Source: a virus (taxonomy: Duplodnaviria > Heunggongvirae > Uroviricota > Caudoviricetes). Taken from it: a DNA stretch of 20,795 bases. The notes beneath the pieces are model-generated. The model ran no database searches, was not told where the DNA came from, and saw only the letters and a list, made by a program, of their open reading frames with translations. Made by a program: the position numbers and the translations under genes. Within the stretch, counting starts at the first letter, position 1, and every line of letters begins with the position of its first letter. The DNA is taken from the IMG/VR virus record IMGVR_UViG_2529292920_000022; one strand, 5' to 3'. Of this stretch, positions 1 through 20,795 are shown piece by piece.

Positions 1-1260
1 ATGCCAAAACTCACAGATATGCAGATCCGCGCATGGATAAAGGCGGGAGACAGATTTGATGGCAAGGCAGACGGCAACGGCCTTTATATTTGCTACCCCA
101 AAAACTACACAGCCCCGTTCTGGCGATTCCGCTATAAGCTCGCAGGAAAGCAGCGGGCTATGGTTATAGGCTCTTACTCCGAACTGTCACTATCAAAAGC
201 CAGAGAAACAGCAAAAGAGCTGTCAGCCAGAGTTGCTCTTGGCTATGACGTAGCAGCAGAGAAACAGGAACGAAAAGCTGAAGCACTGGCAAAAATGGAG
301 GCTGAGAAAAACGCCATGCGTGTTTCAGATCTGGCCTCCGAATACTTCGAGCGCCAGATACTTCCGAGATGGAAACATCCCGATATCCTTCGCCGGAGAA
401 TTGATAAGGATATTAACCCCTGCATTGGGCATATGAAGGTAGAGGACGTTAAGCCACGCCACATTGACGACATGTTGAAAGGTATCGTTGACCGAGGAGC
501 ACCAACGATAGCAACAGATGTATTACGCTGGACACGCCGTATCTTTGACTACGGGATAAAACGCCACGCTCTGGAGATAAACCCTTGTTCAGCGTTTGAA
601 GTATCTGATGCTGGTGGTAAAGAGGTTTCCCGCGACCGTTGGCTAACTCGCGATGAGCTTATCAGGCTATTCGAGGCTATGCGCACCGCAAAAGGATTCA
701 GCCGCCAGAACGAACTGACATTTAAGCTATTGCTGGCACTATGCGTTCGTAAGATGGAGTTATGCGCCGCACGATGGGAAGAGTTTGATTTAGATGGTGC
801 GGTATGGCATTTGCCGGAAGAACGCAGCAAAAACGGAGACCCTATTGATATACCTCTACCTTCCCCAGCCGTTGAATGGTTGAGAGAGCTACACACCTTT
901 TCATGTAATAGCGCATGGGTGCTTCCAGCCAGGAAGATGCAAAACAGAATGATCCCACATATTCAGGAAAGCACTTTGCCCGTAGCACTGGCTAAGGTTC
1001 GCGCCGAAATGCCGGATGTGCCTAATTTCACGATTCACGACTTCCGACGCACCGCACGTACTCATTTAGCAGCGTTGGGTGTTGATCCTGTCGTGGCGGA
1101 ACGATGCCTCAATCATCGCATTAAGGGCGTAGAGGGGATTTATAACCGCCATCAGTATTTTGATGAGCGTAAAGCAGCACTGGCACAGTGGGCTGATCTG
1201 CTGGTGGCACTGGAAAGCGGAAAAGACTACAACGTAACGCCTCTCAGAAGGGCGAACTAA
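1..1260 (+). CDS. int: P4-family tyrosine integrase (CP4-57 IntA-like)
   Basis: 419-aa ORF. N-terminal region (GNGLYICYPKN...WRFRYKLAGKQRAMVIGSY) resembles the arm-binding domain of P4-type integrases; C-terminal region carries catalytic-type motifs (HDFRRTARTHL, NHRIKGVEGIYNRH). An AlpA gene lies downstream, the usual partner of this integrase class. Confidence 0.9.
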   Translation: MPKLTDMQIRAWIKAGDRFDGKADGNGLYICYPKNYTAPFWRFRYKLAGKQRAMVIGSYSELSLSKARETAKELSARVALGYDVAAEKQERKAEALAKMEAEKNAMRVSDLASEYFERQILPRWKHPDILRRRIDKDINPCIGHMKVEDVKPRHIDDMLKGIVDRGAPTIATDVLRWTRRIFDYGIKRHALEINPCSAFEVSDAGGKEVSRDRWLTRDELIRLFEAMRTAKGFSRQNELTFKLLLALCVRKMELCAARWEEFDLDGAVWHLPEERSKNGDPIDIPLPSPAVEWLRELHTFSCNSAWVLPARKMQNRMIPHIQESTLPVALAKVRAEMPDVPNFTIHDFRRTARTHLAALGVDPVVAERCLNHRIKGVEGIYNRHQYFDERKAALAQWADLLVALESGKDYNVTPLRRAN

Positions 1261-2321: not shown

Positions 2322-2336
2322 AGTAGCTAACTATTC

Positions 2337-2367
2337 AGGCACAGTATCATTACTGTGCCTTTTTATT
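2337..2367 (+). terminator. Rho-independent terminator after the AT-rich cargo ORF
   Basis: 10-bp perfect stem AGGCACAGTA / TACTGTGCCT with a 4-nt loop, followed by a T-rich run. Confidence 0.6.
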
Positions 2368-2435
2368 GTTCATATATGTACAGATACTTCCTCCCGTAAC
2401 GAAGCAACAACTATCGCTAAGAGGTTACGGGAAGC

Positions 2436-2639
2436 ATGAACACCGACACTATTCCTACAAAAGGCTATATCAGACGCTTCCGCCTGGCTGAATTGCTGGG
2501 CGTTAGTGTATCCACCATCGACCGTAAAGTAAGAAACGGTTCACTACCACGTCCGGTAAAGCTGGGAGAAAAAATAACTGCGTTTGATGCGGTTGAGATT
2601 CACAACTGGCTGGCAGAACGCCGCGGGAAGGTGGCCTGA
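2436..2639 (+). CDS. alpA: AlpA-family transcriptional regulator / excisionase-like protein
   Basis: 67-aa ORF; the segment RRFRLAELLGVSVSTIDRKVRNGSLPRPVKLGEKITAFDAVEIHNWL matches the AlpA / MerR-like HTH pattern. Sits next to a P4-type integrase. The RBS region is flanked by an inverted repeat (CCCGTAAC ... GTTACGGG). Confidence 0.85.
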   Translation: MNTDTIPTKGYIRRFRLAELLGVSVSTIDRKVRNGSLPRPVKLGEKITAFDAVEIHNWLAERRGKVA

Positions 2640-2649
2640 TGGAAAAGAA

Positions 2650-3770: not shown

Positions 3771-3865
3771 AATCTCCCCTTACTTATCCGGAGGCAATTG
3801 CAATATCTCTGTGAACTTACACAGCACCAAAGCGCACACCGAAAAAGCATCGTGCCAGAGTCTAT

Positions 3866-4171
3866 ATGCTGCGTACTGGTATAGAGGGATGGACAGAAAA
3901 TGACATTCTTCGCTACTGCCGTCTGTCTTCTGGTCGTAACTATGCAACAGAGTTAGAACGCCAGCTTGGAATCACTCTGGAGCGTATCGACGAAAAGAAT
4001 CCTGATGGTATCGGAACACACCTTCGCTACCGTTTCTCCTGCCGTGGTGATGTTCTGAAAGTGATCACTCATGTTAACCATCTTGCGAACATAAATGATC
4101 ACAACGGACTTTCTCAGCAGGAAATTGCCGACATTCTGAAACTCTACCCGAACGCGTTTAACGCCGCCTAA
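3866..4171 (+). CDS. Hypothetical protein (101 aa); possibly a remnant of a gene disrupted by the IS
   Basis: Open frame immediately right of the IS with no convincing RBS at the annotated ATG. Confidence 0.35.
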   Translation: MLRTGIEGWTENDILRYCRLSSGRNYATELERQLGITLERIDEKNPDGIGTHLRYRFSCRGDVLKVITHVNHLANINDHNGLSQQEIADILKLYPNAFNAA

Positions 4172-4183
4172 CGGAGACTGAAA

Positions 4184-5017: not shown

Positions 5018-5189
5018 GCCAACAGGAACACCACAACCACAAAAACGCTACAAAGATGCCCACGGAGCACTCGTTACTGTCGAAAGCGTGTCTCACAACC
5101 GAGTGACGTTTTATCGCGACGGGTATCAATCGCCATGCGTACAACCGCTGGCGCGTTTCATGAAGGAGTTCGCGGAGGTTAACCAATGA
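5010..5189 (+). CDS. Small protein, DUF4222-like
   Basis: 59-aa ORF (MSKPTGTPQPQKRYKDAHGALVTVESVSHNRVTFYRDGYQSPCVQPLARFMKEFAEVNQ). GGAGG RBS 8 nt upstream; start overlaps the end of the upstream gene by 8 nt. Confidence 0.5.
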   Translation: MSKPTGTPQPQKRYKDAHGALVTVESVSHNRVTFYRDGYQSPCVQPLARFMKEFAEVNQ

Positions 5190-5619
5190 TACCCGTCCAG
5201 AAGAAGACATTTTCACTGGCTGGTATGTCGCCAAAATCCAGCAATATGACGGCAAAGTCAGGCATTAATACAGCAGATACAAGCAAAGTTTATCATTTGC
5301 TGGTGGTCGGAACGGATGCCTTAACCATACCAGAAATCTCGGGCGATGATATTAGCATTGAGAAGGTCAGCGGCTGCGCCAGAAAATTTCTGGTCGTAGA
5401 TGATGTCTTCCGCTCGCGTAGTGACTCCACAAAAACCTTCATCCGCGCGCGTGACGTTAACGAAATGAGCGCGATGTACTGTGCATCTGGTGCTTCCAAT
5501 AGCGAGTTTTCGGAGTCCATAAAAAAGAGCTTGCCGTTATGCGGCAACACGGTTTATGGTTATAAGGCACCTCATAAAACGGGTGCCGGGATTGGCGTCC
5601 TGGTAAATCGAATGGCGAC

Positions 5620-5847
5620 ATATGACGCGCCGAGCGTCTTTTTTTATGTCGTAGGTCTGACTCACCCATTTTTTGGGCGTTGGTGTATAATCCAGCGCCT
5701 TTGTCAATCAATGGTGGCTCAGGCAGGGGCTTCTTCGGAAGCGCCGGTATCCATTCGAGCCGGTTACGCCAACCCTGTCTGGGCTACCACCAGCGAAATT
5801 GGCGTTTCCGGTGGTAGCGTTACATGCTATCGAATGGAGGCTGCCAC
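5620..5847 (+). promoter_or_regulatory. Candidate terminator, promoter and structured leader upstream of the icd-like gene
   Basis: Short GC hairpin GACGC-GCCGA-GCGTC followed by a T7-8 run (about 5624-5645); extended -10 TGTATAAT (about 5684-5691); leader with a GCUUC-UUCG-GAAGC tetraloop hairpin and a 9-bp inverted repeat GCTACCACC / GGTGGTAGC; GGAGG RBS before the ATG at 5848. Confidence 0.3.
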
Positions 5848-6042
5848 ATGCTGGCTACTACCCCTACCCAAAAACCGCAATTTATCTGGATTATCGCCGC
5901 AGTTCGCCGCGATTGCCCGACAATTACCGCCAGAATTCATCATATTGCTGCCGAGTCTGAACGCGATGCTCGCCGTTCTCTGGTGCGCGATCACGTCTGC
6001 TTTTTTGCTGGTCGTATCCGCATGGAGGTGGCACATGATTAA
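5848..6042 (+). CDS. Icd-like (cell-division-inhibitor-like) small protein
   Basis: 64-aa ORF MLATTPTQKPQFIWIIAAVRRDCPTITARIHHIAAESERDARRSLVRDHVCFFAGRIRMEVAHD. The FxGR...V...H C-terminal pattern and size match Icd-like proteins of P1/P4-like elements. Good RBS. Confidence 0.55.
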   Translation: MLATTPTQKPQFIWIIAAVRRDCPTITARIHHIAAESERDARRSLVRDHVCFFAGRIRMEVAHD

Positions 6043-6253
6043 AACCTACGATGTGCATATGGATCCCCTCGAACGCACAAGCCAGATCATCACACTGACA
6101 GAAGTGATTAACGACATTCTGGTGAGCAACTCTCCCTCACGAGACGAAAGACTGAAGGCGTTACTCGCGATATTGGATCTCGCCGTTCGTGACGTTCATT
6201 TCCTGCTGGAAGGTGGCGAAATGCCAGTAAAAACGGGGGCAACCAATGAATAA
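6035..6253 (+). CDS. Hypothetical small protein (72 aa)
   Basis: ATG overlaps the icd-like stop (ATGATTAA); GGAGG RBS. It is the real 3' portion of the 355-aa ORF in the track, which I take to be a chimera. Confidence 0.5.
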   Translation: MIKTYDVHMDPLERTSQIITLTEVINDILVSNSPSRDERLKALLAILDLAVRDVHFLLEGGEMPVKTGATNE

Positions 6254-6440
6254 CTCAATTAATACCCCTCGCCTTACGTCCGCACTTCAATTAATCGAGC
6301 AAGCAGCGGCTGTCCTGGTTGCTGTCAGTCTTTCGGCTGAAGAAATGGACGCTACTGATGTCGTGGATGCGATTAAAGCGTGCTCATCTTTGGTTAACGA
6401 TGCCCGTGCAGAGCTGGTAATTCTTGGGGGTGAAAAATGA
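6246..6440 (+). CDS. Hypothetical small protein (64 aa)
   Basis: Start overlaps the upstream stop (ATGAATAA); part of a co-directional chain of coupled ORFs. Confidence 0.5.
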   Translation: MNNSINTPRLTSALQLIEQAAAVLVAVSLSAEEMDATDVVDAIKACSSLVNDARAELVILGGEK

Positions 6441-6700
6441 ATATCAACTTAATTTATCGTCATCCGTGTGAGCTGGAAATTGAATCATTGCTGAGCCGTG
6501 AAGAACCATATCCAGACACATTCACTCTTGCAGATCGCACGACTGAACGGCTTACCAGAGCGCGCACAGGTCTGGTTCATGTGATGAATGAGATTCTTCC
6601 ATCGGTGGGAGGGGAACAGGCGACAGTAATCACTAGCTGGCTACAAAAAGTTACCTCTCTGATAGATATCAGTTTAATCGATGCGGAGAGTGCGAAATGA
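6437..6700 (+). CDS. Hypothetical protein (87 aa)
   Basis: ATGA start/stop overlap with the upstream ORF. Confidence 0.5.
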   Translation: MNINLIYRHPCELEIESLLSREEPYPDTFTLADRTTERLTRARTGLVHVMNEILPSVGGEQATVITSWLQKVTSLIDISLIDAESAK

Positions 6701-6918
6701 CCAACATCCAGCTCATTGAAGCGCAATGTCGCATCGAACAGGTTCAGACTGTTTTAGGGTTCTGGCTTGAAGGGGCCAGCCCCAGCAACAGAGACAAGTT
6801 AATGATTGGCGCGGTTATGTCACTGCTCAATGGCGTACCAGAAGCTATTCAGGAAGCAGACGAATTGTTGGGCAAATATGAGTTACAGAATCATTCAGGC
6901 GAGGCGAAACATGAATAA
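6697..6918 (+). CDS. Hypothetical protein (73 aa)
   Basis: ATGA start/stop overlap with the upstream ORF. Confidence 0.5.
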   Translation: MTNIQLIEAQCRIEQVQTVLGFWLEGASPSNRDKLMIGAVMSLLNGVPEAIQEADELLGKYELQNHSGEAKHE

Positions 6919-7513
6919 TTTCTTAACTTTCCAGGCAGAAGCAACGCCTGACGGCGTAAACATCATGCACCGCAGCAACGATGGCATGACAGAACGCGTT
7001 GAGACCGTCTCATATATTGATGCCGTAAATCGTCTGGATGCCGAGGATTATGACGATAAACCAGATGAAGGTATGTCAATACATCTCGCTATTGCCGATG
7101 GCGGCAACCAGGGATATTTCGATTACACATCACAGCATAACGTCATTATGTGGAGATGGTTGATCGCAACAGTATTCATGCTGGAAATGAGAGAGGAAAA
7201 CGGCACTGTCAGCATCATTGATGATACTGGCAATCCTTCCGAAGTGGCTGTTTATTCCAACGGCATCGTCGCCATGCCGCTGTATCCAGTAGCAGAGCGC
7301 CTCGCTATGGCAAACAACATTGAGGGCGCGATGATAGAACGTTTTGGCATCGAGTCTGGCACAGAACGCTCCATCATTTTCTACAGAGCCATGATGGATG
7401 TGGAACAAGGAGCACTGACTCCATTTGGTCGTGAAACGCTTGCTGAACTTCACAACAGCTTTATAGCTGAACTGAATGAAAACGGCATGCCATCGGAACC
7501 AGTGACGCACTGA
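6911..7513 (+). CDS. Hypothetical protein (200 aa)
   Basis: Internal Met of track ORF 6806-7513; the start MNNFLTFQ overlaps the upstream stop (ATGAATAA). Confidence 0.5.
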   Translation: MNNFLTFQAEATPDGVNIMHRSNDGMTERVETVSYIDAVNRLDAEDYDDKPDEGMSIHLAIADGGNQGYFDYTSQHNVIMWRWLIATVFMLEMREENGTVSIIDDTGNPSEVAVYSNGIVAMPLYPVAERLAMANNIEGAMIERFGIESGTERSIIFYRAMMDVEQGALTPFGRETLAELHNSFIAELNENGMPSEPVTH

Positions 7514-7523
7514 GGATGGAACC

Positions 7524-7865
7524 ATGATTACTAAAAATTTCCGACTGAATGCGCTGGCAAATAAGTATGCGTCAGCACTGTATAACCACATTACCTCCAC
7601 CAGCGGCGGGGACTATTTCATGATTGATGCGGACGGAGAGGCCGTACGTGTGGAAATCGTCAATGGAGTAAAAGGCGTTCGCAGCCTGATCGATAGTTAC
7701 GCACTGGCAGCCATGAAAGTGTTCTACCCGCAGTGGGAAACCGTGGGGATCGAGCTTCTTGATCGTTGCGTCACTAAGGACAGATTGACTGACGTCGGGC
7801 GTGAGATATGGCAAAGCATGGTTAATGACATGGGCGCAACTGTAGCGGGAGGTTCTCATGCGTGA
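7524..7865 (+). CDS. Hypothetical protein (113 aa)
   Basis: Co-directional ORF in the pre-primase operon, with a short intergenic gap carrying an RBS-like GGAGGATGG. Confidence 0.5.
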   Translation: MITKNFRLNALANKYASALYNHITSTSGGDYFMIDADGEAVRVEIVNGVKGVRSLIDSYALAAMKVFYPQWETVGIELLDRCVTKDRLTDVGREIWQSMVNDMGATVAGGSHA

Positions 7866-8229
7866 AAATGCAGAAATGGCGCTTAGCTCCGCAATCGGAG
7901 AGCAGGTGGCAAAGATTGCTGGTGCTGTGTGGATTCATAACCTTCATTCTACTGGTGAAGAGAAAATGGCAATTCAGACGCCAGAGGGACGCACTATTAC
8001 TACATCTCTGAAGCCGTCAGATGTTTGTGATCTGATTTGCGCATTCATGTACCCAGCAATGAGGACTGTCCACGGCGATAAGTGGAAACTTGCGACAACC
8101 GCTGAATTTGATATGTGGCTAAACAATGATGGCATGCTGACTGATTACGGAATAACCAAGTGGCAGATGCTGGTTAGCCATATCGCAAACGCTATAGACC
8201 ACGTGGGGTACGGTGATGCGAAACATTGA
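7858..8229 (+). CDS. Hypothetical protein (123 aa)
   Basis: Start overlaps the upstream ORF end; its stop overlaps the primase start. Confidence 0.5.
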   Translation: MRENAEMALSSAIGEQVAKIAGAVWIHNLHSTGEEKMAIQTPEGRTITTSLKPSDVCDLICAFMYPAMRTVHGDKWKLATTAEFDMWLNNDGMLTDYGITKWQMLVSHIANAIDHVGYGDAKH

Positions 8230-10972
8230 TCTTATCCGTCAGGTTATCAGTGCGTCTGAAAACAACTGGCCTCATGTGCTGGGCTGCCTGAACATAAATG
8301 TCCCTGACTCTCCGCGCCGTCATGCTCCCTGCCCTGCATGTGGGGGCAAAGATCGATTCCGGTTCGATGACAACGGGCGCGGTAGCTTCATCTGTAATCA
8401 GTGCGGCGCTGGTGATGGGCTGGATTTAATTAAACGCGTAAATAACTGCGACACAACAGAGGCGGCGCTGCTTGCCGCTGATGTTCTGGGTATTGATTAC
8501 CGGACAACGGAAACACCAGAAGCCACCAGCCAGAAACGGGAACAACTGGAAACCGAGCGCCAGCAACGCGAACAGGAGCGCCTGAAAAGGGCGGAGAAGG
8601 ACGAACAACAAAGACGGGATACGTTTTCCCGTCAGTTTGATGACATGCGCAGAAAGGCTGTAAACGGCAAATCTGATTATCTGGTTGCGAAAGGGGTAGG
8701 TGATTTTACATTCCCCGTGTTGCCCGATGGATCTCTGTTGCTGGCGCTGGTGGATAAATCCGGCGCAGTCACAGCAGCACAGACTATTACCTCACATGGT
8801 GAAAAAAGACTCCTGACAGGTTCAGCAAAGCGGGGGGCATATCACGCCATAAACGCACCAGAAACAACACAGAGCATCTTAATCGCAGAAGGGCTGGCAA
8901 CGGCATTATCTGCCCATTTAATTCGTCCAGAGGCGCTGACAGTGGCGGCGATTGATGCCGGGAACCTGTTATATGTCGCCCAGGTACTGCGGGATAAATT
9001 TCCTTCAGCACAAATCATCATTGCTGCGGATAACGACCACAGCGAAGGAAGACAAAACACGGGGAGAATAGCAGCAGAAAAAGCAGCTTTATCTGTTTCT
9101 GGATGGGTGGCATTACCCCCGACAGGTCACAAAGCAGACTGGAATGATTACCACCAAAAACACGGCATTAAATGCGCCACAGAAGCGTTCAATAAGTCAA
9201 TGTACCAACCACAGGGTAATGGCGTGAAACAGGAGCCACAGACCATTGAGGGAAGCGATTTTAAGGTTATGGATACCGACCCACTGAAACCAAGAATAGA
9301 AAGCCGCGAGGATGGTATTTATTGGGTATCTCCGAGAGCTGACAGCCAGAGTGGAGAAATCATCAATAACGAAAGCTGGTTATGTTCTCCGTTAAGCGTT
9401 ATCGGTACTGGCAGAGACGATAAAGACCAGTATCTCATTCTTCGCTGGCTGTCGTTTGGTTCTGAAACGCCGACAACCGCTGCCATTCCACTGGCTGATA
9501 TTGGTGAACGTGAAGGATGGCGCACACTTAAAGCTGGTGGGGTAAATGTCACGACCAAAAGCAGCCTCAGAGCAATACTGGCAGACTGGCTACAACGCAG
9601 TGGCTCTCGTGAATTGTGGCGTGTTGCTCATGCCACTGGCTGGCAATGCGGAGCGTACATCATGCCTGATGGGGAAATCATCGGAACACCTGAAAATCCT
9701 GTGCTGTTCAGCGGGAGAAGCTCAGCCGCAGCCGGATATACCGTCTCAGGGAGCGCGCAAAGCTGGCGTGATAACGTGGCGCGTCTGGCCTTTGGTAACT
9801 ATTCAATGATGACCGGGATCGGCGCAGCACTGGCAGCACCATTGATTGGGCTGGTGGGCGCTGACGGGTTCGGCATTCATTTCTATGAGCAGTCGAGCGC
9901 AGGTAAGACCACCACGGCAAACGTGGCGAGCAGCTTATACGGCAACCCTGATTTACTGCGGCTGACGTGGTACGGAACCGCGCTGGGGCTGGCAAATGAG
10001 GCCGCCGCCCACAATGACGGACTAATGCCGCTTGATGAAGTTGGTCAGGGCGCTGATCCTGTCAGCGTTTCACAGTCTGCCTATGCGTTATTTAACGGTG
10101 TAGGGAAACTGCAAGGCGCTAAAGATGGTGGAAACCGGGATCTAAAACGCTGGCGTACAGTGGCAATCAGCACCGGAGAAATGGATTTAGAAACATTTAT
10201 CGCTACTTCCGGGCGAAAAACCAAAGCCGGGCAACTGGTGCGACTGCTGAATATTCCGTTGAGTAAAGCAGTACGCTTTCACGATTACCAGAACGGAAAA
10301 CAGCACGCAGACGCACTGAAAGACGCTTACCAGCATCACCATGGCGCAGCCGGGCGTGAGTGGATTAAATGGCTGGCAGACCACCAGCAACAGGCTATTA
10401 AAACTGTTCGTGATTGCGAAAGCAGATGGAGAAGCCTGATCCCACCCGATTATGGTGAGCAGGTTCACCGTGTAGCCGCGCGATTTGCCATTCTGGAGGC
10501 CGCATTGTTGTTAGGCGAGGTTGTAACAGGCTGGGATGCTCAGACATGCCGTGATGCGATACAGCACAGCTATAACGCATGGTTGCGCGAGTTCGGCACA
10601 GGTAACAAAGAGCATCAGCAGATTATTGAACAAACGGAGGCATTTCTTAATGCCTATGGGCTTAGCCGTTTTGCACCATTTCCATACAGCCCGGCAGATT
10701 TGCCCATCAAAGATTTAGCCGGATACCGTCAGCGTGGAGAACATGACGAAAGCCCAATGATTTTCTACACATTCCCGGCCACATTTGAAAAGGAGATCGC
10801 ATGTGGTTTCAACGCAAAACAGTTTGCTGAAGTGTTGAAAAAAGCCGGGATGCTAACCCCACCAAACAGCGGTCGTGGATACCAAAGAAAATCACCACGT
10901 ATTCAGGGACGACAAATAAACGTTTATGTACTCAATTACCAGCCAGGAGATTATAACTCATCTGAAGAATGA
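8213..10972 (+). CDS. Primase-helicase (P4 alpha-like: zinc-binding primase region, TOPRIM, C-terminal helicase domain)
   Basis: 919-aa ORF. N-terminal Cys cluster (CPACGGKDRF...CNQCG); TOPRIM-like acidic motifs (IAEGLATALS..., IIIAADNDHSEGRQNTG); Walker A-like GIHFYEQSSAGKTT and Walker B-like LMPLDEVG. The ATG at 8216 is the likely start (8213 is GTG). Confidence 0.9.
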   Translation: MMRNIDLIRQVISASENNWPHVLGCLNINVPDSPRRHAPCPACGGKDRFRFDDNGRGSFICNQCGAGDGLDLIKRVNNCDTTEAALLAADVLGIDYRTTETPEATSQKREQLETERQQREQERLKRAEKDEQQRRDTFSRQFDDMRRKAVNGKSDYLVAKGVGDFTFPVLPDGSLLLALVDKSGAVTAAQTITSHGEKRLLTGSAKRGAYHAINAPETTQSILIAEGLATALSAHLIRPEALTVAAIDAGNLLYVAQVLRDKFPSAQIIIAADNDHSEGRQNTGRIAAEKAALSVSGWVALPPTGHKADWNDYHQKHGIKCATEAFNKSMYQPQGNGVKQEPQTIEGSDFKVMDTDPLKPRIESREDGIYWVSPRADSQSGEIINNESWLCSPLSVIGTGRDDKDQYLILRWLSFGSETPTTAAIPLADIGEREGWRTLKAGGVNVTTKSSLRAILADWLQRSGSRELWRVAHATGWQCGAYIMPDGEIIGTPENPVLFSGRSSAAAGYTVSGSAQSWRDNVARLAFGNYSMMTGIGAALAAPLIGLVGADGFGIHFYEQSSAGKTTTANVASSLYGNPDLLRLTWYGTALGLANEAAAHNDGLMPLDEVGQGADPVSVSQSAYALFNGVGKLQGAKDGGNRDLKRWRTVAISTGEMDLETFIATSGRKTKAGQLVRLLNIPLSKAVRFHDYQNGKQHADALKDAYQHHHGAAGREWIKWLADHQQQAIKTVRDCESRWRSLIPPDYGEQVHRVAARFAILEAALLLGEVVTGWDAQTCRDAIQHSYNAWLREFGTGNKEHQQIIEQTEAFLNAYGLSRFAPFPYSPADLPIKDLAGYRQRGEHDESPMIFYTFPATFEKEIACGFNAKQFAEVLKKAGMLTPPNSGRGYQRKSPRIQGRQINVYVLNYQPGDYNSSEE

Positions 10973-10997
10973 GCTTCTTCATGTGCGTAGAAAAGGT

Positions 10998-11108
10998 GTT
11001 GGTTCAGTTGGTTCAGTTGGTTCAATTTGTAAAGAGTATTGTTTTATAAGGATTTTATTCTTTTTATTGAACCAACACTGAACCAACAACACGGTATTTT
11101 GAACCAAC
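10998..11108. repeat. Iteron array, putative replication origin (left copy of an inverted pair)
   Basis: Three tandem GTTGGTTCA 9-mers (about 10998-11024), a 44-bp AT-rich spacer, then three TGAACCAAC 9-mers (the reverse complement) at about 11069, 11079 and 11100. Lies immediately 3' of the primase gene. Confidence 0.6.
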
Positions 11109-11428
11109 ACAATGTGACTGAATTGATGCGCACAACACCTGGCTGGCATCAGAGAGTGTTTTACGAGACTTTCGTAAAATCCTGTGTACAAGGGCGTGAC
11201 GTTTTTGAAAGTGAGCACTACGAAATTTTCGTAGTTCAAAAAACAGCCTCTGAGAAGTTGTTATGCCTGTTCAGCAAACCATCCGCATAGCTGATCGCGA
11301 ATCAAATTACCAATGGAGCCAGAAGCAAGGGCAGAACTGAAAAGCGCCTGCCGTGAAGAGTAATGCGATACCATAAATATAGTTTTTAGAGTCCATAAAA
11401 AACCTGTCAAAACCTGACACACAGAACG

Positions 11429-11462
11429 ATGCCACCAGCTACTGAGCGGTGGCATTTTTTTG
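11429..11462 (+). terminator. Rho-independent terminator
   Basis: 8-bp stem ATGCCACC / GGTGGCAT with an 11-nt loop, followed by 8 or more T. Confidence 0.6.
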
Positions 11463-11556
11463 TGCTATTTGTTTCATATTTTGCAATTACGATGATGAAT
11501 ATTGCGATTTGTGAAACCATAATAACTGTTGTTTTATACAGTTCTAAGGGGGCGTT

Positions 11557-11718
11557 ATGGCTATTTCAGTAAAGCCGGTATTGATAAGTGAGAAGCAAAT
11601 GGAAGCGATAAAGAAAATTCAGGAAGAGCAGCGTAAAAAATCAGGAATTGGAGTAGCGCCAACTCTGCATGAAATTGCACGAGGGTTAATAGATAAGGCG
11701 CTGGCAGGCTGTATGTGA
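11557..11718 (+). CDS. Small hypothetical protein (53 aa), possible regulator
   Basis: ORF MAISVKPVLISEKQMEAIKKIQEEQRKKSGIGVAPTLHEIARGLIDKALAGCM with AAGGGGG RBS. Below the ORF-track length cutoff. First gene after the terminator and promoter-like AT-rich region. Confidence 0.4.
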   Translation: MAISVKPVLISEKQMEAIKKIQEEQRKKSGIGVAPTLHEIARGLIDKALAGCM

Positions 11719-11734
11719 AAATGGATGGCATCGC

Positions 11735-12196
11735 ATGGAACTAAAATTTATTGATAACCCTGTGCGATTACAGGCCTTTCTTAACGAGCCAGGCAATACC
11801 GAAAATATTGTTGAGCCGGGGCACACGTACTACATCAAGCCTGATGCGGTATATCTCGGCATCTACGAAGGATTAGTGCTGGCTGGCGTTCATGAAGTGC
11901 GTAACTTCTGGCATAGCGTTGTTGAATGCCATGCGGTGTACGACCCCGGATTCCGTGGTGAATATGCACTGCAAGGGCATCGATTATTCTGCAAATGGCT
12001 TCTCGAAAACTCACCATTCCTTAACAGCATCACCATGGTTCCTGACACCACCAAATACGGACGGGCAATTATCCGTTTGCTTGGCGCTACCCGTGTTGGT
12101 CACCTTGATGATGCTTATATCAGATGTGGTAAACCCGTCGGCGTAACGCTTTATCAGTTAACTCGGCAACAATATAAGGAATTCAGCGAATGTTAA
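11735..12196 (+). CDS. Phage virion-assembly-associated protein, P22 gp14-like by position (tentative)
   Basis: 153-aa ORF translationally coupled (ATGTTAA overlap) to the following three genes. Assigned by position in a gp14-gp7-gp20-gp16-like array; the sequence itself is not diagnostic to me. Confidence 0.4.
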   Translation: MELKFIDNPVRLQAFLNEPGNTENIVEPGHTYYIKPDAVYLGIYEGLVLAGVHEVRNFWHSVVECHAVYDPGFRGEYALQGHRLFCKWLLENSPFLNSITMVPDTTKYGRAIIRLLGATRVGHLDDAYIRCGKPVGVTLYQLTRQQYKEFSEC

Positions 12197-12867
12197 TTAC
12201 CCATATAGCTCATAAACATCTCAATCGTGCCGTATACGAAAAAGGCGGTGATGGTGGTGCCTCTAAAGCTCAGGCGAAGGCCCAGCAGCAGGCAATTGAT
12301 TTGCAGCGCGAGCAGTGGAATACGGTGATGAATAATCTCAAGCCGTATGCAGAAGTCGGATTGCCTGCTTTACAACAACTGCAAGGACTGATGACTCTGG
12401 AAGGGCAGAATAAAGCCGCGAATGATTTCTTTGGTTCTGGTTTATATAAAACACAGGCAGATCAGGCCCGTTATCAGAACCTTGTCTCAGCAGAAGCTAC
12501 CGGGGGGCTTGGCTCAACAGCTACCAGTAACCAGTTATCTTCCATTGCGCCCATGCTTTATAACAATTGGCTCAGTGGGCAAATGCAAAATTATGGAAAC
12601 CTGCTAAATGTCGGGATGAATGCGGCATCAGGGCAGGCAACGGCAGGGCAAAACTACGCCAATAATACCGGACAACTCTTGCAGGGGCTTGGCGCTATTC
12701 GTGCAGGTCAGGCGCAGCAGCCATCCAGTCTTGCGCGTGGTATTGGTGGGGCAGCATCAGGCGCTTTAGCGGGTGCGCAACTTGGTTCCGTTGTTCCTGG
12801 AATAGGAACTGCGGCCGGCGCTATTGGTGGTGGGCTTATTGGTCTTGTTGGGGGGCTTGGATTCTAA
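12190..12867 (+). CDS. Ejection (internal virion) protein, P22 gp7-like
   Basis: 225 aa (P22 gp7 is about 229 aa as I recall). Gln/Ala/Gly-rich with a Gly-rich hydrophobic C-terminus (GIGTAAGAIGGGLIGLVGGLGF). TAATG coupling to the next gene. Confidence 0.55.
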   Translation: MLITHIAHKHLNRAVYEKGGDGGASKAQAKAQQQAIDLQREQWNTVMNNLKPYAEVGLPALQQLQGLMTLEGQNKAANDFFGSGLYKTQADQARYQNLVSAEATGGLGSTATSNQLSSIAPMLYNNWLSGQMQNYGNLLNVGMNAASGQATAGQNYANNTGQLLQGLGAIRAGQAQQPSSLARGIGGAASGALAGAQLGSVVPGIGTAAGAIGGGLIGLVGGLGF

Positions 12868-14288
12868 TGGCGACATGGCAACTTGGCGGGCTGCCTAGCA
12901 TGGCACCGCAAAATGATAATGCTCCTCGTTCTTCCGTTCCTCAGCCTGTGCAGTATCAGCAGCAGCCAAACGTAGGTTTAATGGCGCTACAGGGGCTAAG
13001 AGGCGTTGCTGAGATTAATCAGCAGGCACGTCAACAACAGCGTAAATCAGAGTTTCAGAAAGCATATGCCGGGGCTTTTGAGTCTGGAGACAGAAACAAA
13101 ATGCGCAGTCTTATTTCTGAGTATCCAGAAGAATTTGAAAGCGTTCAGAAAGGGATGGGCTTTATTGATGACGACCAGAGAAATTCTATTGGTCATCTTG
13201 CGACTAGTGCTCAAATCGCATCTTCGCTCGGAACTGGGGCATTTGGAAAATTCATAGCAGATAACGAAGATGAAATGCGTCGCTTGGGAATTTCTCCTGA
13301 GTCTGTTGCCGAAATGCATGTTAATGATCCACAGGGATTCCAGCGGCTTGCTGGTAGTATGGCACTGTTTTCTCTCGGTCATGAGAAGTATTTCGATATC
13401 AAAGATCAAATGGAAGGTCGGGATATTGAGCGAGGCAGGCTGGCAGAGACAATCCGCAGCAATCAGGCTGGCGAAGCACTTCAGGCGAGAGGGCAGGATA
13501 TTAGCCGAGCAAATGCGTTAACGTCAGCATATGCACCAACAGCAGCAATGCAGAATTACAATCAGTACGCTCAAATGTTAAAGGCGGATCCAGAGGGGGC
13601 GGCGGCATTTGCGGCAGCGGCTGGAATTAATACAAACGCCAAAAAATTAATGAGTGTTAGAGAAAACGATGATGGCACTGTCACAAAATACTACACAGAC
13701 GGAAGTGAAGAGCAGGGAAAACTAAACCAGCCAATATCTGGAGATGGGTTTCGTCCAATAGCTTTGCCAACAGCCCAAAAGATCATGGAAAAGTCGCCAG
13801 AAGGGGCTAAAAAAGCTGCTGGATTTGCATACAGGGTTAGGGATGCTCTTGATTCAATAGATACACTGAAAGACCAGCTTAGCCCACAGCGAGTGGCGAT
13901 CATTAATAATGCTTTGGGTAATGGGACGCTGGCTAACTTAACGCTCAGCCCAACAGAGCAGCAATACGTTGTTAATGCTAATGACGCAATAATGGCAATA
14001 CTCCGTCAGGAAACAGGGGCAGCTATCGTACCTGCTGAAATGTCAAAATATTATCAAATGTATTTCCCTCAGCCTGGCGACTCCACAAAAACCATTGATA
14101 CCAAGCGCCGGAAGATGGAAAACCAGTTCAATTCGCTGAAAGCTGCTTCTGGTCGAGCTTATGATGCTTTGCGGGTTATTTCAGCAGTTGACAGAGGAAC
14201 GTCTTCTTCGTCGCAGACATTGCCGCAATCTGAGCAGGTATCACAGCCAGCAGCCAGCAGTAACTTTTCTTCACTATGGGGTGATTAA
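12867..14288 (+). CDS. Ejection protein, P22 gp20-like
   Basis: 473 aa (P22 gp20 is about 471 aa as I recall). Low-complexity Q/A-rich N-terminus. TAATG coupling on both sides. Confidence 0.55.
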   Translation: MATWQLGGLPSMAPQNDNAPRSSVPQPVQYQQQPNVGLMALQGLRGVAEINQQARQQQRKSEFQKAYAGAFESGDRNKMRSLISEYPEEFESVQKGMGFIDDDQRNSIGHLATSAQIASSLGTGAFGKFIADNEDEMRRLGISPESVAEMHVNDPQGFQRLAGSMALFSLGHEKYFDIKDQMEGRDIERGRLAETIRSNQAGEALQARGQDISRANALTSAYAPTAAMQNYNQYAQMLKADPEGAAAFAAAAGINTNAKKLMSVRENDDGTVTKYYTDGSEEQGKLNQPISGDGFRPIALPTAQKIMEKSPEGAKKAAGFAYRVRDALDSIDTLKDQLSPQRVAIINNALGNGTLANLTLSPTEQQYVVNANDAIMAILRQETGAAIVPAEMSKYYQMYFPQPGDSTKTIDTKRRKMENQFNSLKAASGRAYDALRVISAVDRGTSSSSQTLPQSEQVSQPAASSNFSSLWGD

Positions 14289-16393
14289 TGGCTAAAGCAT
14301 GGAAAGATGTTATCGCCTCTCCACAGTATCAGGCGTTAGCACCAGAACAAAAAGCGCAGGCTCAGGAGCAATACTTCAATGAAGTCGTTGCCCCGCAAGC
14401 CGGAGAAAGTGTAGAGCAGGCTAAGCAGGCTTTTTATGCTGCCTATCCACTACCATCAACGAATGAAATAGACCGATCCCAATCAGCAACTCAAAATATT
14501 CAACATACATCATCTGATAATTCTCTTGCGTCAGGGTATGCAAAGTTAGCTACTCAGCAAAGAGAGGGGCTTGAGCGTTCAGCAGAACAGGGAGCCAGTC
14601 TTGGGGCTGCGATGCGCGATGCTATAACAGGCGAAAGCCGAATGACTTCAGAGATGGAGAGACTGCAAAATGTCGCCTCTGCCCCAGAATTGAACTCACT
14701 AAGCATGGATGCCCTAAAGGCTGGATGGTCCCAACTTTTCGGCTCTGACGCGTCTCAGGAAAAGATTCTTCAGGGAATGGGGGCGACATTAAGGCAGGAT
14801 GAGAAGGGGAATACTATCGTTTCTCTGCCATCAGGTGATTATGCCCTGAACAAGCCGGGTTTATCACCGCAAGACCTGACTTCGTTTCTTGCTAATGCGT
14901 TGGCGTTTACACCAGCGGGCAGGGCTGGAACGGTGCTTGGTGCCATAGGAAAATCAGCAGCTACAGATTTAGCACTACAGGGAGCCACCAGCCTTGCTGG
15001 TGGAGAAGATATTGATCCGTTACAAACGGTAATTTCTGCTGGTATTGGTGGTATTGGTAAGGGGCTGGAAAATACAGCGAGTGCGGTTTCGAGGGCTGTT
15101 CGTGGTGATATGTCGCCTGAAGCAAAGGCTGCTGTCGACTTTGCATCGGAAAGAAATCTGCCGTTAATGACCAGTGACATGCTGAAAGATAAAACCTTTA
15201 TGCAGAGTCAGGCTCAGACATTAGGCGAAAGAGTTCCTTTTTTTGGAACCGGTAAGAATCGGCTGAATCAACAACAAGCACGAGAAAATTTAGTCAGAAC
15301 ATTTAGCGATGGTCTGGGTGGCATTTCTGATAAACAGCTTTATGAATCTGCGACTAAAGGGCAACAAAAATTCATTGAGGCAGCAGGAAAGCGATATAAC
15401 CGCATAATTGACGCTATGGGGGATACCCCTGTCGATCTCTCAAACACGGTAAAAGCTATCGACAATCAGATTGCCGTGTTAAGCCGCCCGGGCAAATCTC
15501 AGGATAGAGCCGCGGTAAAAGTCTTGCAGCAATTTAAAGACGATATCACCAGCGGACCAAATGACCTGCGCCTGGCGAGGGAAAACAGAACCGATCTTCG
15601 AAAGCGATTTATTGCGTCATCTGACACTGTTGATAAAGATACGCTCCAGAAAGCCAGCGATATTATCTACAAGGCATATACGGCGGATATGAAAAAAGCC
15701 GTAGCCAAAAATCTTGGAGCAGACGAAGCCATTAATATGGCAAGGGTTGATCGCTCATGGTCTAAATTCAATGACATGATGGGAAGAACGCGCGTTCAAA
15801 AGGCAATAGCCAGCGGCAAGGCCACGCCTGAGGATGTAACAAAACTCGTTTTTAGCCAAAGCCCATCAGAACGTTCTCAGCTTTACAGGCTTCTGGATGA
15901 CAATGGTAGGCAAAACGCACGAGCAGCCATAGTTCAGAATGCTGTAGATAAGGCGACTGATCCGTCTGGAAATATCAGTGTTGAGAAGTTTATTAATGCG
16001 TTACACCGGAACAGGAAGCAATCAGCAACTTTCTTTAAAGGCGTACATGGGAAGGAACTGGACGGCGTTATTAAATACCTCAACGATACAAGACACGCGG
16101 CAAAAGCGAACGTTCAAAACTTAAATGGTCAGCAGCTTTATGGATTGTTAGTTGGTGGTGGCATCATAAACGCAGCAGTATTAGCGGGGATGCTAAAAAC
16201 GGCTGCGTTTGTTGTTCCTGCTGCTGGTGCCGTAGGCGGAGCAGCGAAGGCATACGAAACCCCTGTTATACGAAATGCCTTGTTACGTCTGGCAAATACG
16301 CCAAAAGGTAGCACAGCATATGACAGAGCGATCAGTACGGTCACACAATCGCTCACCAGAGTCGCACAGGCATCACAAAAAGAAGCTCAATAA
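14288..16393 (+). CDS. Ejection protein, P22 gp16-like
   Basis: 701 aa. Ala/Gln/Gly-rich with a C-terminal hydrophobic Gly/Ala segment (LLVGGGIINAAVLAGMLKTAAFVVPAAGAVGGAA). Last gene of the four-gene coupled operon. Confidence 0.55.
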   Translation: MAKAWKDVIASPQYQALAPEQKAQAQEQYFNEVVAPQAGESVEQAKQAFYAAYPLPSTNEIDRSQSATQNIQHTSSDNSLASGYAKLATQQREGLERSAEQGASLGAAMRDAITGESRMTSEMERLQNVASAPELNSLSMDALKAGWSQLFGSDASQEKILQGMGATLRQDEKGNTIVSLPSGDYALNKPGLSPQDLTSFLANALAFTPAGRAGTVLGAIGKSAATDLALQGATSLAGGEDIDPLQTVISAGIGGIGKGLENTASAVSRAVRGDMSPEAKAAVDFASERNLPLMTSDMLKDKTFMQSQAQTLGERVPFFGTGKNRLNQQQARENLVRTFSDGLGGISDKQLYESATKGQQKFIEAAGKRYNRIIDAMGDTPVDLSNTVKAIDNQIAVLSRPGKSQDRAAVKVLQQFKDDITSGPNDLRLARENRTDLRKRFIASSDTVDKDTLQKASDIIYKAYTADMKKAVAKNLGADEAINMARVDRSWSKFNDMMGRTRVQKAIASGKATPEDVTKLVFSQSPSERSQLYRLLDDNGRQNARAAIVQNAVDKATDPSGNISVEKFINALHRNRKQSATFFKGVHGKELDGVIKYLNDTRHAAKANVQNLNGQQLYGLLVGGGIINAAVLAGMLKTAAFVVPAAGAVGGAAKAYETPVIRNALLRLANTPKGSTAYDRAISTVTQSLTRVAQASQKEAQ

Positions 16394-16397
16394 CTGG

Positions 16398-16421
16398 TTA
16401 GCCATGGATGGCTAATTTTTG
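16398..16421 (+). terminator. Candidate terminator between convergent genes
   Basis: Inverted repeat TTAGCCAT / ATGGCTAA followed by TTTTT, immediately after the gp16-like stop. Confidence 0.35.
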
Positions 16422-16831
16422 TTCTTTGCTCTCATCCATAGGTAAAGAAGGGAAAGAACAAGACAAAAAACAGAGAATAGATAACCTACCTCATATGGTG
16501 CGCCAAAAAAATTAGCCATTGATACGGGCAAAAAAGCTGAAGCGATCAAAATTGAAAGGCAAAAAATAAGCCCAGTAATATAGTTTATTAAATTCTTAAA
16601 TGAGAAACGTTTTGCTTGATTTACGGTCTTAACGAACGATCGCTTAACGACGGATAAAAGCAAATAGATGGCGACAGTTGCTAATGCCCCTTTCCACCAG
16701 TCTGGATATAGTTTTGCGACAATCAGACCAAGGAAAACCATGATGACAGCCTGAGCATTCACACCAACCCTCCCTTTAGCTTTGTTTAGAATGGCAATCA
16801 TCATATATCCAAGACATGGCATTTGGTACAT
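16412..16831 (-). CDS. AT-rich integral membrane protein; candidate superinfection-exclusion / moron protein
   Basis: 139-aa ORF with about four hydrophobic helices (VIMVFLGLIVAKLY, ATVAIYLLLSVV, GLIFCLSILIASAFL, LFSVFCLVLSLLYLW). Low GC. Convergent with the ejection operon, the position SieA occupies in P22. Confidence 0.55.
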   Translation of the reverse strand: MYQMPCLGYMMIAILNKAKGRVGVNAQAVIMVFLGLIVAKLYPDWWKGALATVAIYLLLSVVKRSFVKTVNQAKRFSFKNLINYITGLIFCLSILIASAFLPVSMANFFGAPYEVGYLFSVFCLVLSLLYLWMRAKNKN

Positions 16832-17285
16832 AGCTTGGGTCGGGATTTCAAATCCGATCCCCGTTGATGGGGCCGTTACAGTACGCGCATATCCTCTTTA
16901 TGTGAAACAGGAAGATTTTTCTGATATCACTGCCACAGCAAAACACCAATTTCGTGACCAGTACGCGCGCGAGGGGTATCAGTTGCAAAAAATTTTGCAA
17001 CTGCGTCCGACCAGTACGCACACGATGGCGGGGAGCACCATAAAACTGTTCTCTACATAAGACAGAGTGGTGGTGATGTGTTGATTATCGGCGTATATGC
17101 GCACAGGACGCGCTATGACGATGTTTTATGCGGGTACACCAATCACATGTATCTGGTGTGATCAATCGCGTTACATGACATCTCATGTTGTGCTGGTGAT
17201 TATCACGACGTTCTGAATCTGGCCTTTGCCTGATATTTTGCGACAAGTACGCGCGCGTAGCATCGACAGCATACACATTGGATAT

Positions 17286-17486
17286 TCATTTTGTGACCAA
17301 TGCGATAAGTAGCGGGATAAGAATTGATAAAATCAACAGGACGATGATCCACTTTTGATTCTCGTCCATCTTATCTGCTAGGCGACGCTCCATTCCGTGC
17401 ATATCACCGCGAATGGCAATCATCTCATTGCGAACATCCGAGAAGTGGTTGGCTTGATGTTCAATGTGTGGCGTTCTGCCTTTCAT
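17286..17486 (-). CDS. Small single-pass membrane protein (XhlA-like topology)
   Basis: 66 aa: a charged, helical N-terminal part followed by a C-terminal transmembrane segment (WIIVLLILSILIPLLIALV). Confidence 0.4.
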   Translation of the reverse strand: MKGRTPHIEHQANHFSDVRNEMIAIRGDMHGMERRLADKMDENQKWIIVLLILSILIPLLIALVTK

Positions 17487-17567
17487 GTCTGATCCTCACC
17501 TATCGTCACCACCTGATGGTGTATAAAGGTATTAGCCCAAGCAGCTTTCCAATGGGCACTCATGTTT

Positions 17568-19928
<2,361 letters not shown>

Positions 19929-19959
19929 ATCAGTGAGTAATATCCATACAGTATACCAC

Positions 19960-19977
19960 TGTATAACACTGTTATAC
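19960..19977. promoter_or_regulatory. Candidate operator palindrome upstream of the RHH gene
   Basis: GTATAACA-C-TGTTATAC, a perfect 8-bp inverted repeat around one central base, about 35 bp upstream of the RHH gene start. A neighbouring CAGTATA / CTGTATA motif is related. Confidence 0.3.
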
Positions 19978-20030
19978 GCTCAAATATCAGCCAGAAAATA
20001 ACAGACCAATCACAAATCTATCGCTGTGTT

Positions 20031-20151
20031 GTTGGTTCAGAGCTGGGCTGTGTTGGTTCAAAATGAGTTGATGTTGGTTCAATATTTTAGAAAAAACACA
20101 ATAAAAACAACGCTCTTTACAAATTGAACCAACTGAACCAACTGAACCAAC
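20031..20151. repeat. Iteron array (right copy; inverted relative to the 10998-11108 array)
   Basis: Three GTTGGTTCA at about 20031, 20052 and 20073; an AT-rich spacer; then three tandem TGAACCAAC at about 20125-20151. The flanking CTCTTTACAAAT and CACCTTTT are the reverse complement of the left-copy flanks. Confidence 0.6.
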
Positions 20152-20187
20152 ACCTTTTTGCTTATCTATATAATCTGAGAGGCAGAA

Positions 20188-20475
20188 ATGATAAAGGACA
20201 GGAAAGCTGAAGAGCTGGAGTCAAAAGGGCTATACCGGAGAGCTGCCGCACGATGGGCAGAAGTCATGATGCTGGCAGATGGCGATAAAGAACGTGAACA
20301 TGCAGCAAACAGACGCTCTGAATGTATCCGTAAGGCGGCACGCCCACCAGCAACTACAGACAGATTCGGAGATTTAAGACAGGCAGTTAAGCGGACTCAT
20401 TCGGCTCTTGGTATGGATGAGGAAGCGAGAGGGTACTTCAGGCGTTATCGCGATAAAGATTGCCAGAGACAGTAA
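20188..20475 (+). CDS. PerC-family transcriptional regulator-like protein
   Basis: 95-aa ORF; the N-terminus MIKDRKAEELESKGLYRRAAARWAEVM matches the PerC/Pch family pattern. TATAAT-like -10 and a GAGAGG RBS lie just upstream, directly next to the iterons. Confidence 0.65.
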   Translation: MIKDRKAEELESKGLYRRAAARWAEVMMLADGDKEREHAANRRSECIRKAARPPATTDRFGDLRQAVKRTHSALGMDEEARGYFRRYRDKDCQRQ

Positions 20476-20795
20476 TGCTCTCTCTGTTTTGGCAAATTAC
20501 CCCTCACTTTGAAGGGATCGGAGCTATAAAAATGGTGTTATCCGGAATCCTCAAATTGAGGATTGTGGAAGAATCAATGGGTTAGGTCATCGTGCAAATT
20601 TGCACTCTGCCAGCCAACGCAATTTCTCGTTGGCGGAAATATCAGGTATTTACTGAACGAACGGTCTACCAGTCTGTTCAGTTACCAGTTGCACATGGCT
20701 GTTTCATGTGAGAACGGAGGTTTTTTTCGGACATCGCTATTGGGTACAGCAATTTCACGAGCAATACGCGCGCGCAGGACAACAAGCCTGAACAT

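Follow-up and report, generated by a model that had tools for sequence, protein, structure and literature searches.

A distal mirror-image iteron array adjoins the perC-like gene of an EcCIMP1-like phage-inducible chromosomal island

The window (the whole 20,795-nucleotide stretch analyzed here) is, judged by its gene content and order, an EcCIMP1-like phage-inducible chromosomal island (PICI) of Escherichia coli, and the perC-like gene at its right end directly follows an iteron array, designated A2, that is the mirror image of an array beside the primase gene, designated A1. Our reading is that the right half of an origin lies in front of perC, that the primase binds it, that occupancy alters the activity of the perC promoter and that PerC acts as a modulator; we give this model as a whole a probability of about 0.5. 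The perC gene is itself unremarkable, since both its family and the type of satellite that carries it are known and it has been annotated before, and PerC genes and iteron origins located 3' of pri are likewise known PICI features. No distal PICI iteron array is described in the literature searched, where the split mirror-image origin and the co-variation between primase motif and iteron also appear to be undescribed; a conserved mirror-image second array with an outward promoter-like junction, present in several PICI lineages, is thus the part that was not found there.

Gene order in the window matched that of EcCIMP1 of E. coli MP1 (L007) and of the copies L001 and L002. L001, from strain ISHS7, is the closest complete genome and lacks the insertion sequences (IS) of the window; its island lies between yicC and dinD and runs from int through HTH/alpA, an antirepressor, ash, the TOPRIM-DUF927 primase and DNA-ejection proteins to perC, which is the last gene. 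In the window, a tyrosine integrase (1..1260, plus strand) forms the left island end, as in L001, and an intact AlpA-like HTH gene (2436..2639, plus strand) occupies the place of an annotated HTH regulator in L001. The primase/helicase initiator (8213..10972, plus strand) contains Zn-ribbon, Toprim, DUF927 and C-terminal domains according to Pfam and is annotated in L001 as a "TOPRIM and DUF927 domain-containing protein." An integrase at one end, alpA, pri-rep and mostly rightward transcription make up the layout given for Gram-negative PICIs (Fillol-Salom et al. 2018). AlpA has been identified as the master activator of PICIs (PMC6092414, PMC11773190), a role that the gene at 2436..2639 may have by analogy.

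Two insertions distinguish the window from L001. Comparison by blastn placed an IS of approximately 1.1 kb at 2728-3815, where it cuts the gene after alpA, and an IS21-family insertion with IstA/IstB open reading frames was delimited at 17707..19606 (plus strand) by its ORFs, its inverted ends and the blastn breakpoints. The latter is not present in L001 and interrupts a 147-aa gene divergent from perC, of which the 5' two-thirds remain at 19614..19916 (minus strand); the intact gene spans 19574-20017 in L001. By eye the N-terminus of its product is ribbon-helix-helix-like, and a Pfam search with it returned no match. Between the two arrays, the cargo encodes DUF2824, P22 gp7, a gp20-type translocase and a gp16-like protein (Pfam, PHROG). 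The element region was found in 814 of 5,426 complete E. coli genomes, from commensal and diverse strains, and a related element is available as a 12.2-kb circular record (L028).

The first-pass annotation had described the final open reading frame as a PerC-like regulator, and alignment bears this out. The product of 20188..20475 (plus strand; 95 aa plus stop), encoded by the last island gene before the right end and the last before dinD in L001, matched the Pfam PerC family PF06069 over its full length (E value of 3.1e-33; 114.3 bits against a cutoff of 22.6; positions 1 to 89 of 90) and also phrog_994 (E value of 2.7e-37). PF06069 was assigned to 98 of 99 homologues of the protein, which are all of the 98 with a Pfam annotation, and hundreds of E. 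coli genomes in RefSeq have the protein labeled as a PerC family regulator. Both the size and the conserved N-terminal motif fit the family (about 90 to 105 aa), the motif KAE-LE-KGLYRRAA-RW being common to the window protein and PerC/Pch-type proteins, and residues D4, E8, L10, E11, G14, Y16, R18, R22, W23 and C46 were invariant in alignments of 54 and 7 sequences. A 104-aa Pch-type protein encoded beside lambdoid lysis genes shares 52% identity over 88 residues. PerC of the EPEC EAF plasmid, PchA-C of EHEC prophages and the ANR family (Aar) are small helical proteins like that of the window, but assignment to the ANR family (NCBIfam NF033650) was rejected, as only a weak, subthreshold match confined to residues 5 to 52 was obtained (26.2 bits against a cutoff of 32).

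Structure prediction by AlphaFold was poor without an alignment (pLDDT of 67) and reached a pLDDT of 78 with 54 sequences, with a confident three-helix N-terminal half (>90, residues 1 to 50). Foldseek searches of the PDB with this model found nothing significant (best E value of 2.8) and hence no fold-based lead to function, while a PDB sequence search with the PerC profile returned solely a designed coiled coil (E value of 0.011).

To follow the gene beyond E. coli, species-representative genomes were scanned with the PerC alignment, which identified 18 loci in Escherichia, Enterobacter, Kluyvera, Shimwellia, Citrobacter, Buttiauxella, Lelliottia and Yokenella. Homologues lie inside PICIs of Enterobacter, Kluyvera, Shimwellia, Lelliottia and Buttiauxella, and in most primase-bearing loci perC is located 0.1 to 1 kb 3' of an iteron array and the DUF927 primase, usually in the order pri-ori-(ssb)-(proQ/FinO)-perC. 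The non-Escherichia genera with a PICI perC are not known to carry the LEE.

This distribution bears on what PerC does, as does the occurrence of the element in commensal and diverse E. coli at the frequency given above. Since PerC/Pch-family proteins can activate virulence regulons, the window PerC could be a LEE activator of attaching-and-effacing E. coli whose expression is triggered when the element replicates. Its membership of the family is genuine, it has the similarity to a Pch-type protein noted above, and some E. coli PICIs encode PerC alleles, certain of which are reported to activate the LEE (Fillol-Salom et al. 2018, PMC6092414); Pch itself relieves H-NS silencing (PMC4764244). 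Conversely, perC is conserved in the PICIs of genera that are not known to carry the LEE, overexpression of EcCIMP1_025, the nearest tested homologue, in Citrobacter rodentium silenced LEE1-lux, and the PerC-like proteins of EcCIEDL933 and EcCICFT073 were without effect on LEE1 (PMC11773190). EcCIMP1_025, the tested protein of this island type, is only 49 to 53% identical to the window allele. We regard a LEE activator switched on in this way as highly improbable, and the suggestion that activation is the default function of PICI PerC proteins fared poorly and is unlikely. An ANR-like role has been proposed for PICI PerC by Pick et al. (PMC11773190), and by analogy the window PerC is expected to be a modulator of H-NS-type silencing complexes, or an ANR-type anti-activator, rather than a dedicated LEE activator.

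Comparison with EcCIMP1_025 (WP_000617443.1, also present in L002) further revealed that the first 27 or so residues of the two proteins are nearly identical, with one conservative change, whereas the rest has diverged; the upstream DNA is nearly identical as well. A nearly identical 5' part joined to a diverged remainder indicates a recombination breakpoint within perC, and the window allele is mosaic.

The array adjoining the 5' region of perC is formed by the 9-mer TGAACCAAC, of which 12 exact copies were found in the 20.8-kb window against 0.24 expected; none of 100 shuffles reached 12. All 12 copies are confined to A1 and A2, so that one iteron forms two separated clusters on the same replicon, a trait of bipartite origins of the P4 ori/crr type. 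A1 (10998..11108, copies on both strands) starts 26 nt after the primase stop codon and consists of a tandem triple on the minus strand (10998-11024, three exact copies), a 43-nt spacer of 84% AT and three spaced exact copies on the plus strand (11068, 11079 and 11100); it lies where a Gram-negative PICI origin is located. A2 (20031-20151) has three spaced iterons on the minus strand with a 21-nt period (20031-39, 20052-60 and 20073-81), a 43-nt spacer (20082..20124) whose AT content of 79%, compared with 52% for the window, makes it a candidate melting region, and a right tandem triple on the plus strand (R3, 20125..20151), which forms the promoter-proximal edge and stops 36 nt short of the perC ATG. 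The two arrays match each other as an inverted repeat (55 nt, 96% identity) and are 9 kb apart in the window, 6.4 kb apart in L001 and 1.9 kb apart in L028. The array reported at perC is thus real, but it is a second, distal mirror array and not the one beside the primase.

Alignment of the A1 and A2 copies of five elements showed every iteron to be invariant, within an invariant block of the form AAAACAA..CTTTACAAAT-(TGAACCAAC)x3-ACCTTTT. The spacers between the spaced iterons of A2 have strongly diverged into window-type and L002-type haplotypes, and all six A2 iterons are unchanged between them. Invariance of the iterons amid diverged spacers argues that A2 is under selection. The possibility that A2 is a dead duplicate was considered and is disfavored by the same observation, together with the existence of distal arrays in other lineages.

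What A2 corresponds to became apparent from relatives of the element. The closest relatives of the primase (about 80% identical) have a single compact origin of approximately 260 bp, which begins with a reverse tandem triple of iterons and an AT-rich region, continues with five forward iterons (three spaced and two more) and a single reverse one, and closes with a forward tandem triple. Beyond it come a conserved junction (ACnnTTTyTGyTTAT-TA-rich-A-run) and then the next gene. In L014 (Enterobacter adelaidei) the compact origin is built from TGAACCAAC and is directly followed by perC; L012, L013 and L016 have GAGACAAC at all 12 positions, followed by ssb-perC; and L027, a capsid-forming PICI of E. 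coli, again has a compact origin with TGAACCAAC. The right part of the L027 origin matches A2 in its reverse iterons, its AT-rich spacer ending in CTTTACAAAT and its triple, and the A2 triple is homologous to the right triples of the compact origins of both L014 and L027. Given this match, A2 and the perC junction together correspond to the right half of an origin that was ancestrally compact. By this homology, the two origin halves of the EcCIMP1 lineage are separated by approximately 7 kb of P22-type ejection-protein cargo, and each half is nonetheless complete in itself, with an AT-rich spacer flanked by two iteron sets. A scan of IMG/VR for triples of this iteron recovered inverted triples both 233 nt apart (compact) and about 7.5 kb apart (split).

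Split arrays are not restricted to this iteron. Three other E. coli PICI lineages have distal arrays near the right end that are made of their own, different iteron and are likewise arranged as mirror images. Those of L004 and L006 use TAACCCGC, with the arrays of L004, a capsid-forming PICI, located at 11356-11491 and 19767-19912, and those of L005 and L009 use CTTGTCCC.

The first-pass annotation had also assumed that the primase is the protein that binds the iterons, and a comparison of primases agrees with it. Among the 946 alignment columns, 17 of the 27 that separate users of GAACCAAC from users of GAGACAAC are located in the last 96 (hypergeometric probability of 1e-11). The window, L014 and L027 have the motif GRGYQ(R/Q)KSP-RI(Q/D)GRQ(I/F)NVYVL in common, though the core of the L027 primase is only 70% identical, and L012, L013 and L016 carry GRGYQGRV-RE(G/D)GRQIRVYVL despite a core identity of 85 to 92%. 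The window segment RKSPRIQGRQINV is the counterpart of the GRV-RE(D/G)GRQIRV version found in GAGACAAC users. Three further iteron types correspond to three further primase motifs, for five specificities in all; the C-terminal motif tracks the iteron type and not the phylogeny of the core, in a comparison of few lineages. Residues 886 to 911 of the window primase (SGRGYQRKSPRIQGRQINVYVLNYQP; 10868..10945, plus strand) are, on the basis of this co-variation, the candidate determinant of iteron recognition. The pattern fits a C-terminal segment that recognizes the iterons, with co-inheritance of primase and origin by module exchange as the alternative. Because the motif co-varies with the iteron, the primase is the likely iteron-binding initiator, and A1 and A2 are both most likely bound by the TOPRIM-DUF927 primase via this segment. 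The co-variation amounts to a putative specificity code for PICI replication and incompatibility that is open to direct test.

The upstream neighbors of perC are on the opposite strand, and these leftward genes cut it off from the main rightward operon, so perC needs a promoter within the 260 bp upstream. A -10-like hexamer, TATAAT (TATAGT in some copies), is located at 20169..20174 (plus strand), 17 nt past the last iteron and 13 nt before the ATG, and a Shine-Dalgarno-like GAGAGG at 20177..20182 (plus strand) lies 5 nt before the ATG and is identical in L001, L002, L007, L026 and 13 IMG/VR loci. A strict consensus scan of 19850-20795 for sigma-70 promoters and terminators found none. In a relaxed hexamer search the best plus-strand hit was TATAAT with the -35 hexamer CCAACA (20147-20152, three of six matches, 16-nt spacer), which overlaps the last iteron; any -35 spaced 16 to 18 nt from TATAAT falls within that iteron. 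Initiation about 7 nt after TATAAT (approximately 20180-20183) would leave a leader of 5 to 8 nt in which the Shine-Dalgarno sequence is cut, and, as the predicted start falls inside it, TATAAT and GAGAGG would not both be fully usable by one transcript. The earlier claim that a -10 and a ribosome binding site sit next to the iterons therefore stands as to the presence of both hexamers within 36 nt but not as to an evident promoter, and TATAAT is regarded as a candidate perC promoter. An Rfam scan of 16300-20795 (E value of ≤0.1) detected no RNA family. Read-through from perC into int in the circular form was also considered and is disfavored, a terminator-like hairpin being present between perC and int in L028.

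Past the right triple, every lineage has a T-rich/TA-rich/A-run element, which is conserved across at least four iteron specificities. The gene after it is perC in the window type and in L014, ssb in L012, L013 and L016, and an unrelated 111-aa gene in L027, while in the distal arrays of L004 to L006 the element is sited after the last gene and has none downstream. From 25 right-side junctions with this iteron in IMG/VR, perC was the first gene in 13 and the second in 4 more, and a weaker PerC match was located about 2.2 kb downstream of 1 other. Since the junction precedes whatever gene follows, or none, the adjacency of iterons and perC is best described as a general junction between origin and downstream operon, and the idea of a perC-specific design does not hold. 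The element is limited to the right-triple side and absent at the primase-side triple, an asymmetry more in keeping with a directional signal, for instance a promoter, than with a symmetric component of the origin, although the element could be an origin element rather than a promoter. Geometry is also not uniform, as L008 has no -10 in the 20 nt that separate its last iterons from the following start codon.

A generic junction raises the possibility that the adjacency is purely historical: cargo split a compact origin, perC stayed with the right half, and A2 may bind the initiator as an auxiliary site in replication or copy control, like crr of P4 or incA of P1, while perC is expressed independently of occupancy. 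The varied or missing downstream genes in other PICIs, the position of the L004 to L006 distal arrays after the last gene and the coexistence of compact and split forms with the same iteron are all consistent with such a history. Against independence from occupancy, the candidate -35 overlaps the last iteron, RNA polymerase could hardly disregard three bound sites at about -56 to -30, and elements of at least four iteron specificities have kept the junction. We consider a purely historical adjacency unlikely.

The model that we prefer, in which occupancy alters perC transcription, can be set out as follows. The primase/initiator would bind both A1 and A2, and perC would be transcribed from TATAAT at 20169, the only strong element in the upstream 260 bp. 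The tandem triple would then cover about -56 to -30 of the perC promoter, with the -35 region inside the last iteron, and for this reason occupancy by the initiator should change perC transcription, probably to a measurable extent. Occlusion is favored as the direction, by analogy with P1, F and pSC101, and perC would then be turned down as primase accumulates after induction; with so poor a -35, the initiator might also activate from a class II-like position. That perC expression is coupled to replication is a plausible hypothesis.

The direction of coupling might instead be the reverse, with outward transcription from the perC and divergent promoters supercoiling the AT-rich spacer negatively and helping to open the origin, in which case the TA-rich junction would be conserved for the sake of replication. 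Transcription of gidA aids the opening of oriC, and transcription from pR aids that of ori-lambda. A2 does lie between divergently transcribed genes, and the TA-rich junction is kept beside distal arrays without a downstream gene and solely on the outward side of the right triple. This explanation assumes, however, that A2 fires as an origin, and no such outward promoter is present on the triple side of A1, beside the primase stop; we judge reverse coupling to be decidedly unlikely.

If the initiator does control the junction, satellites of this kind would tie the expression of accessory genes to the switch from the integrated to the replicating state, and, if so, regulators acting on virulence genes or H-NS-silenced genes of the host could be among them. 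The broadest form of the preferred model would be a modular, bipartite origin of enterobacterial PICIs, in which the primase-proximal and the mirror-image distal half may be parted by kilobases of cargo while each retains the element-specific iteron read by the primase C-terminus, whose distal half is a crr-/incA-like control site and whose initiator-gated outward promoter switches PerC-like regulators at replication; this generalization is put forward only tentatively, as more doubtful than the model for the window itself.

Of the systems already described, EcCIMP1 is the nearest. It is a PICI of E. coli MP1 mobilized by the P22-like phage Kapi1 (Pick, Stadel & Raivio 2025, PMC11773190), with which helper-dependent excision, replication and transfer have been shown (PMC11773190). 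Like the window, it has int, alpA, an antirepressor, ash, the primase, DUF2824 and P22-type ejection genes and a far-end perC; its primase is 99% identical to the TOPRIM-DUF927 primase of the window, both arrays are present with the same 9-mer and the perC 5' region is identical. The two differ in the integration site (thrW/proA-yagU for EcCIMP1, between yicC and dinD for the L001 copy), in the gene divergent from perC (alpA_1 in EcCIMP1, the 147-aa gene in the window) and in the two IS insertions of the window copy. The paper describing EcCIMP1 (PMC11773190) makes no mention of iterons or of an origin. The Gram-negative PICI origin of Fillol-Salom et al. (2018, PMC6092414), shown to be functional for EcCICFT073, has an AT-rich region flanked by two iteron sets and located 3' of pri-rep; it resembles the window in having iterons directly 3' of pri-rep and an AT-rich middle. 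Unlike it, the window has two inverted units kilobases apart, the second adjoining perC near the right end.

A closer parallel for the split arrangement is the satellite P4, whose ori and crr loci are reportedly served by the alpha primase-helicase. As in the window, a satellite with a fused initiator has two clusters of the same iteron kilobases apart, and in P4 alpha the iterons are recognized by a C-terminal DNA-binding domain; the helicase module differs, being of the DUF927 type in the window, and no PerC gene is known at P4 crr. Iteron plasmids offer the parallel for the junction. The incC/repA/incA region of P1, ori2/repE/incC of F and pSC101 combine initiator-occluded promoters with auxiliary iteron loci, and they share with the window repeats that overlap a promoter (a candidate promoter in the window) and a second iteron cluster, which in the plasmids is a control locus. 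The gene on the iteron side is the initiator in these plasmids, whereas in the window it is the accessory regulator perC.

A second, mirror-image iteron array near the right end is also present in other Escherichia coli phage-inducible chromosomal islands (PICIs), one of them capsid forming. In this capsid-forming island (L004), the two arrays lie at 11356-11491 and 19767-19912, and in three other loci they occupy 10427-10562 and 17234-17379 (L006), 10790-10917 and 13079-13122 (L005), and 8790-8917 and 11082-11103 (L009). The iteron of each distal array is that of the element's own primase-proximal origin, being either TAACCCGC or CTTGTCCC in an element-specific manner. A basic motif at the C terminus of the primase (residues 886-911, window 10868-10945) covaries with the iteron sequence over five iteron types. 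This motif is a candidate for the element that sets specificity in the replication and incompatibility of PICIs. The distal arrays of L004, L006, and L005 are followed by a conserved noncoding stretch, TTTTGTATATATATATACGAAAAATTGCATTCAG...CCATTRCTTATGG... (19920-20060, 17387-17530, and approximately 13170-13280, respectively), within which no conserved open reading frame was found; it could be a promoter or leader, a small RNA, or a packaging or att-related site.

A circular 12.2-kb record deposited as a plasmid (L028; accession number NZ_CP148430.1, positions 1-12152) is a circular form of an EcCIMP1-like island that lacks the cargo of ejection proteins. Along the circle, pri is followed by the primase-proximal array, the distal array, perC, a terminator-like hairpin, and then int; the perC of this record shares 99% identity with that of the window. 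This suggests an episomal or excised state.

The perC gene is mosaic when the window copy (20188-20475) is compared with those of L002 (14159-14440) and EcCIMP1 itself (L007; 9535-9816). The promoter region and the first ~84 nt of perC are nearly identical to those of the EcCIMP1_025 allele, beyond which protein identity falls to about 40 to 50%; this drop implies a recombination breakpoint inside perC, near 20271. Located 60 nt past the perC stop codon is a perfect 7-bp hairpin, AATCCTC AAATT GAGGATT (20530-20556), which has no T-run. It might serve as a weak terminator or, close to the right end, as a site for protein binding. Three copies of an ~29-nt repeat (…CAATTTCRYGASCARTACGCGCGCG) were identified near the island's right part and 3' of perC (16943-16971, 17229-17257, and 20746-20774).

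Two insertion sequences interrupt genes of the island. An IS100-like element of the IS21 family encoding IstA/IstB (17707-19606) has inserted near codon 101 of a 147-amino-acid gene that is transcribed divergently from perC, leaving a remnant at 19614-19916 on the minus strand. The intact form of this gene gave no family match; the N terminus of its product is ribbon-helix-helix-like in appearance, and the protein could regulate the divergent promoters locally. The second, a ~1.1-kb element encoding a 348-amino-acid transposase (2728-3815), sits about 30 codons inside the gene after alpA, which is itself intact (2436-2639).

Between the two origin halves, the satellite carries a module (11735-16393) encoding its own DUF2824 protein and homologs of gp7, gp20, and gp16, the ejection proteins of P22. 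This P22-type cargo matches the P22-like helper of the satellite.
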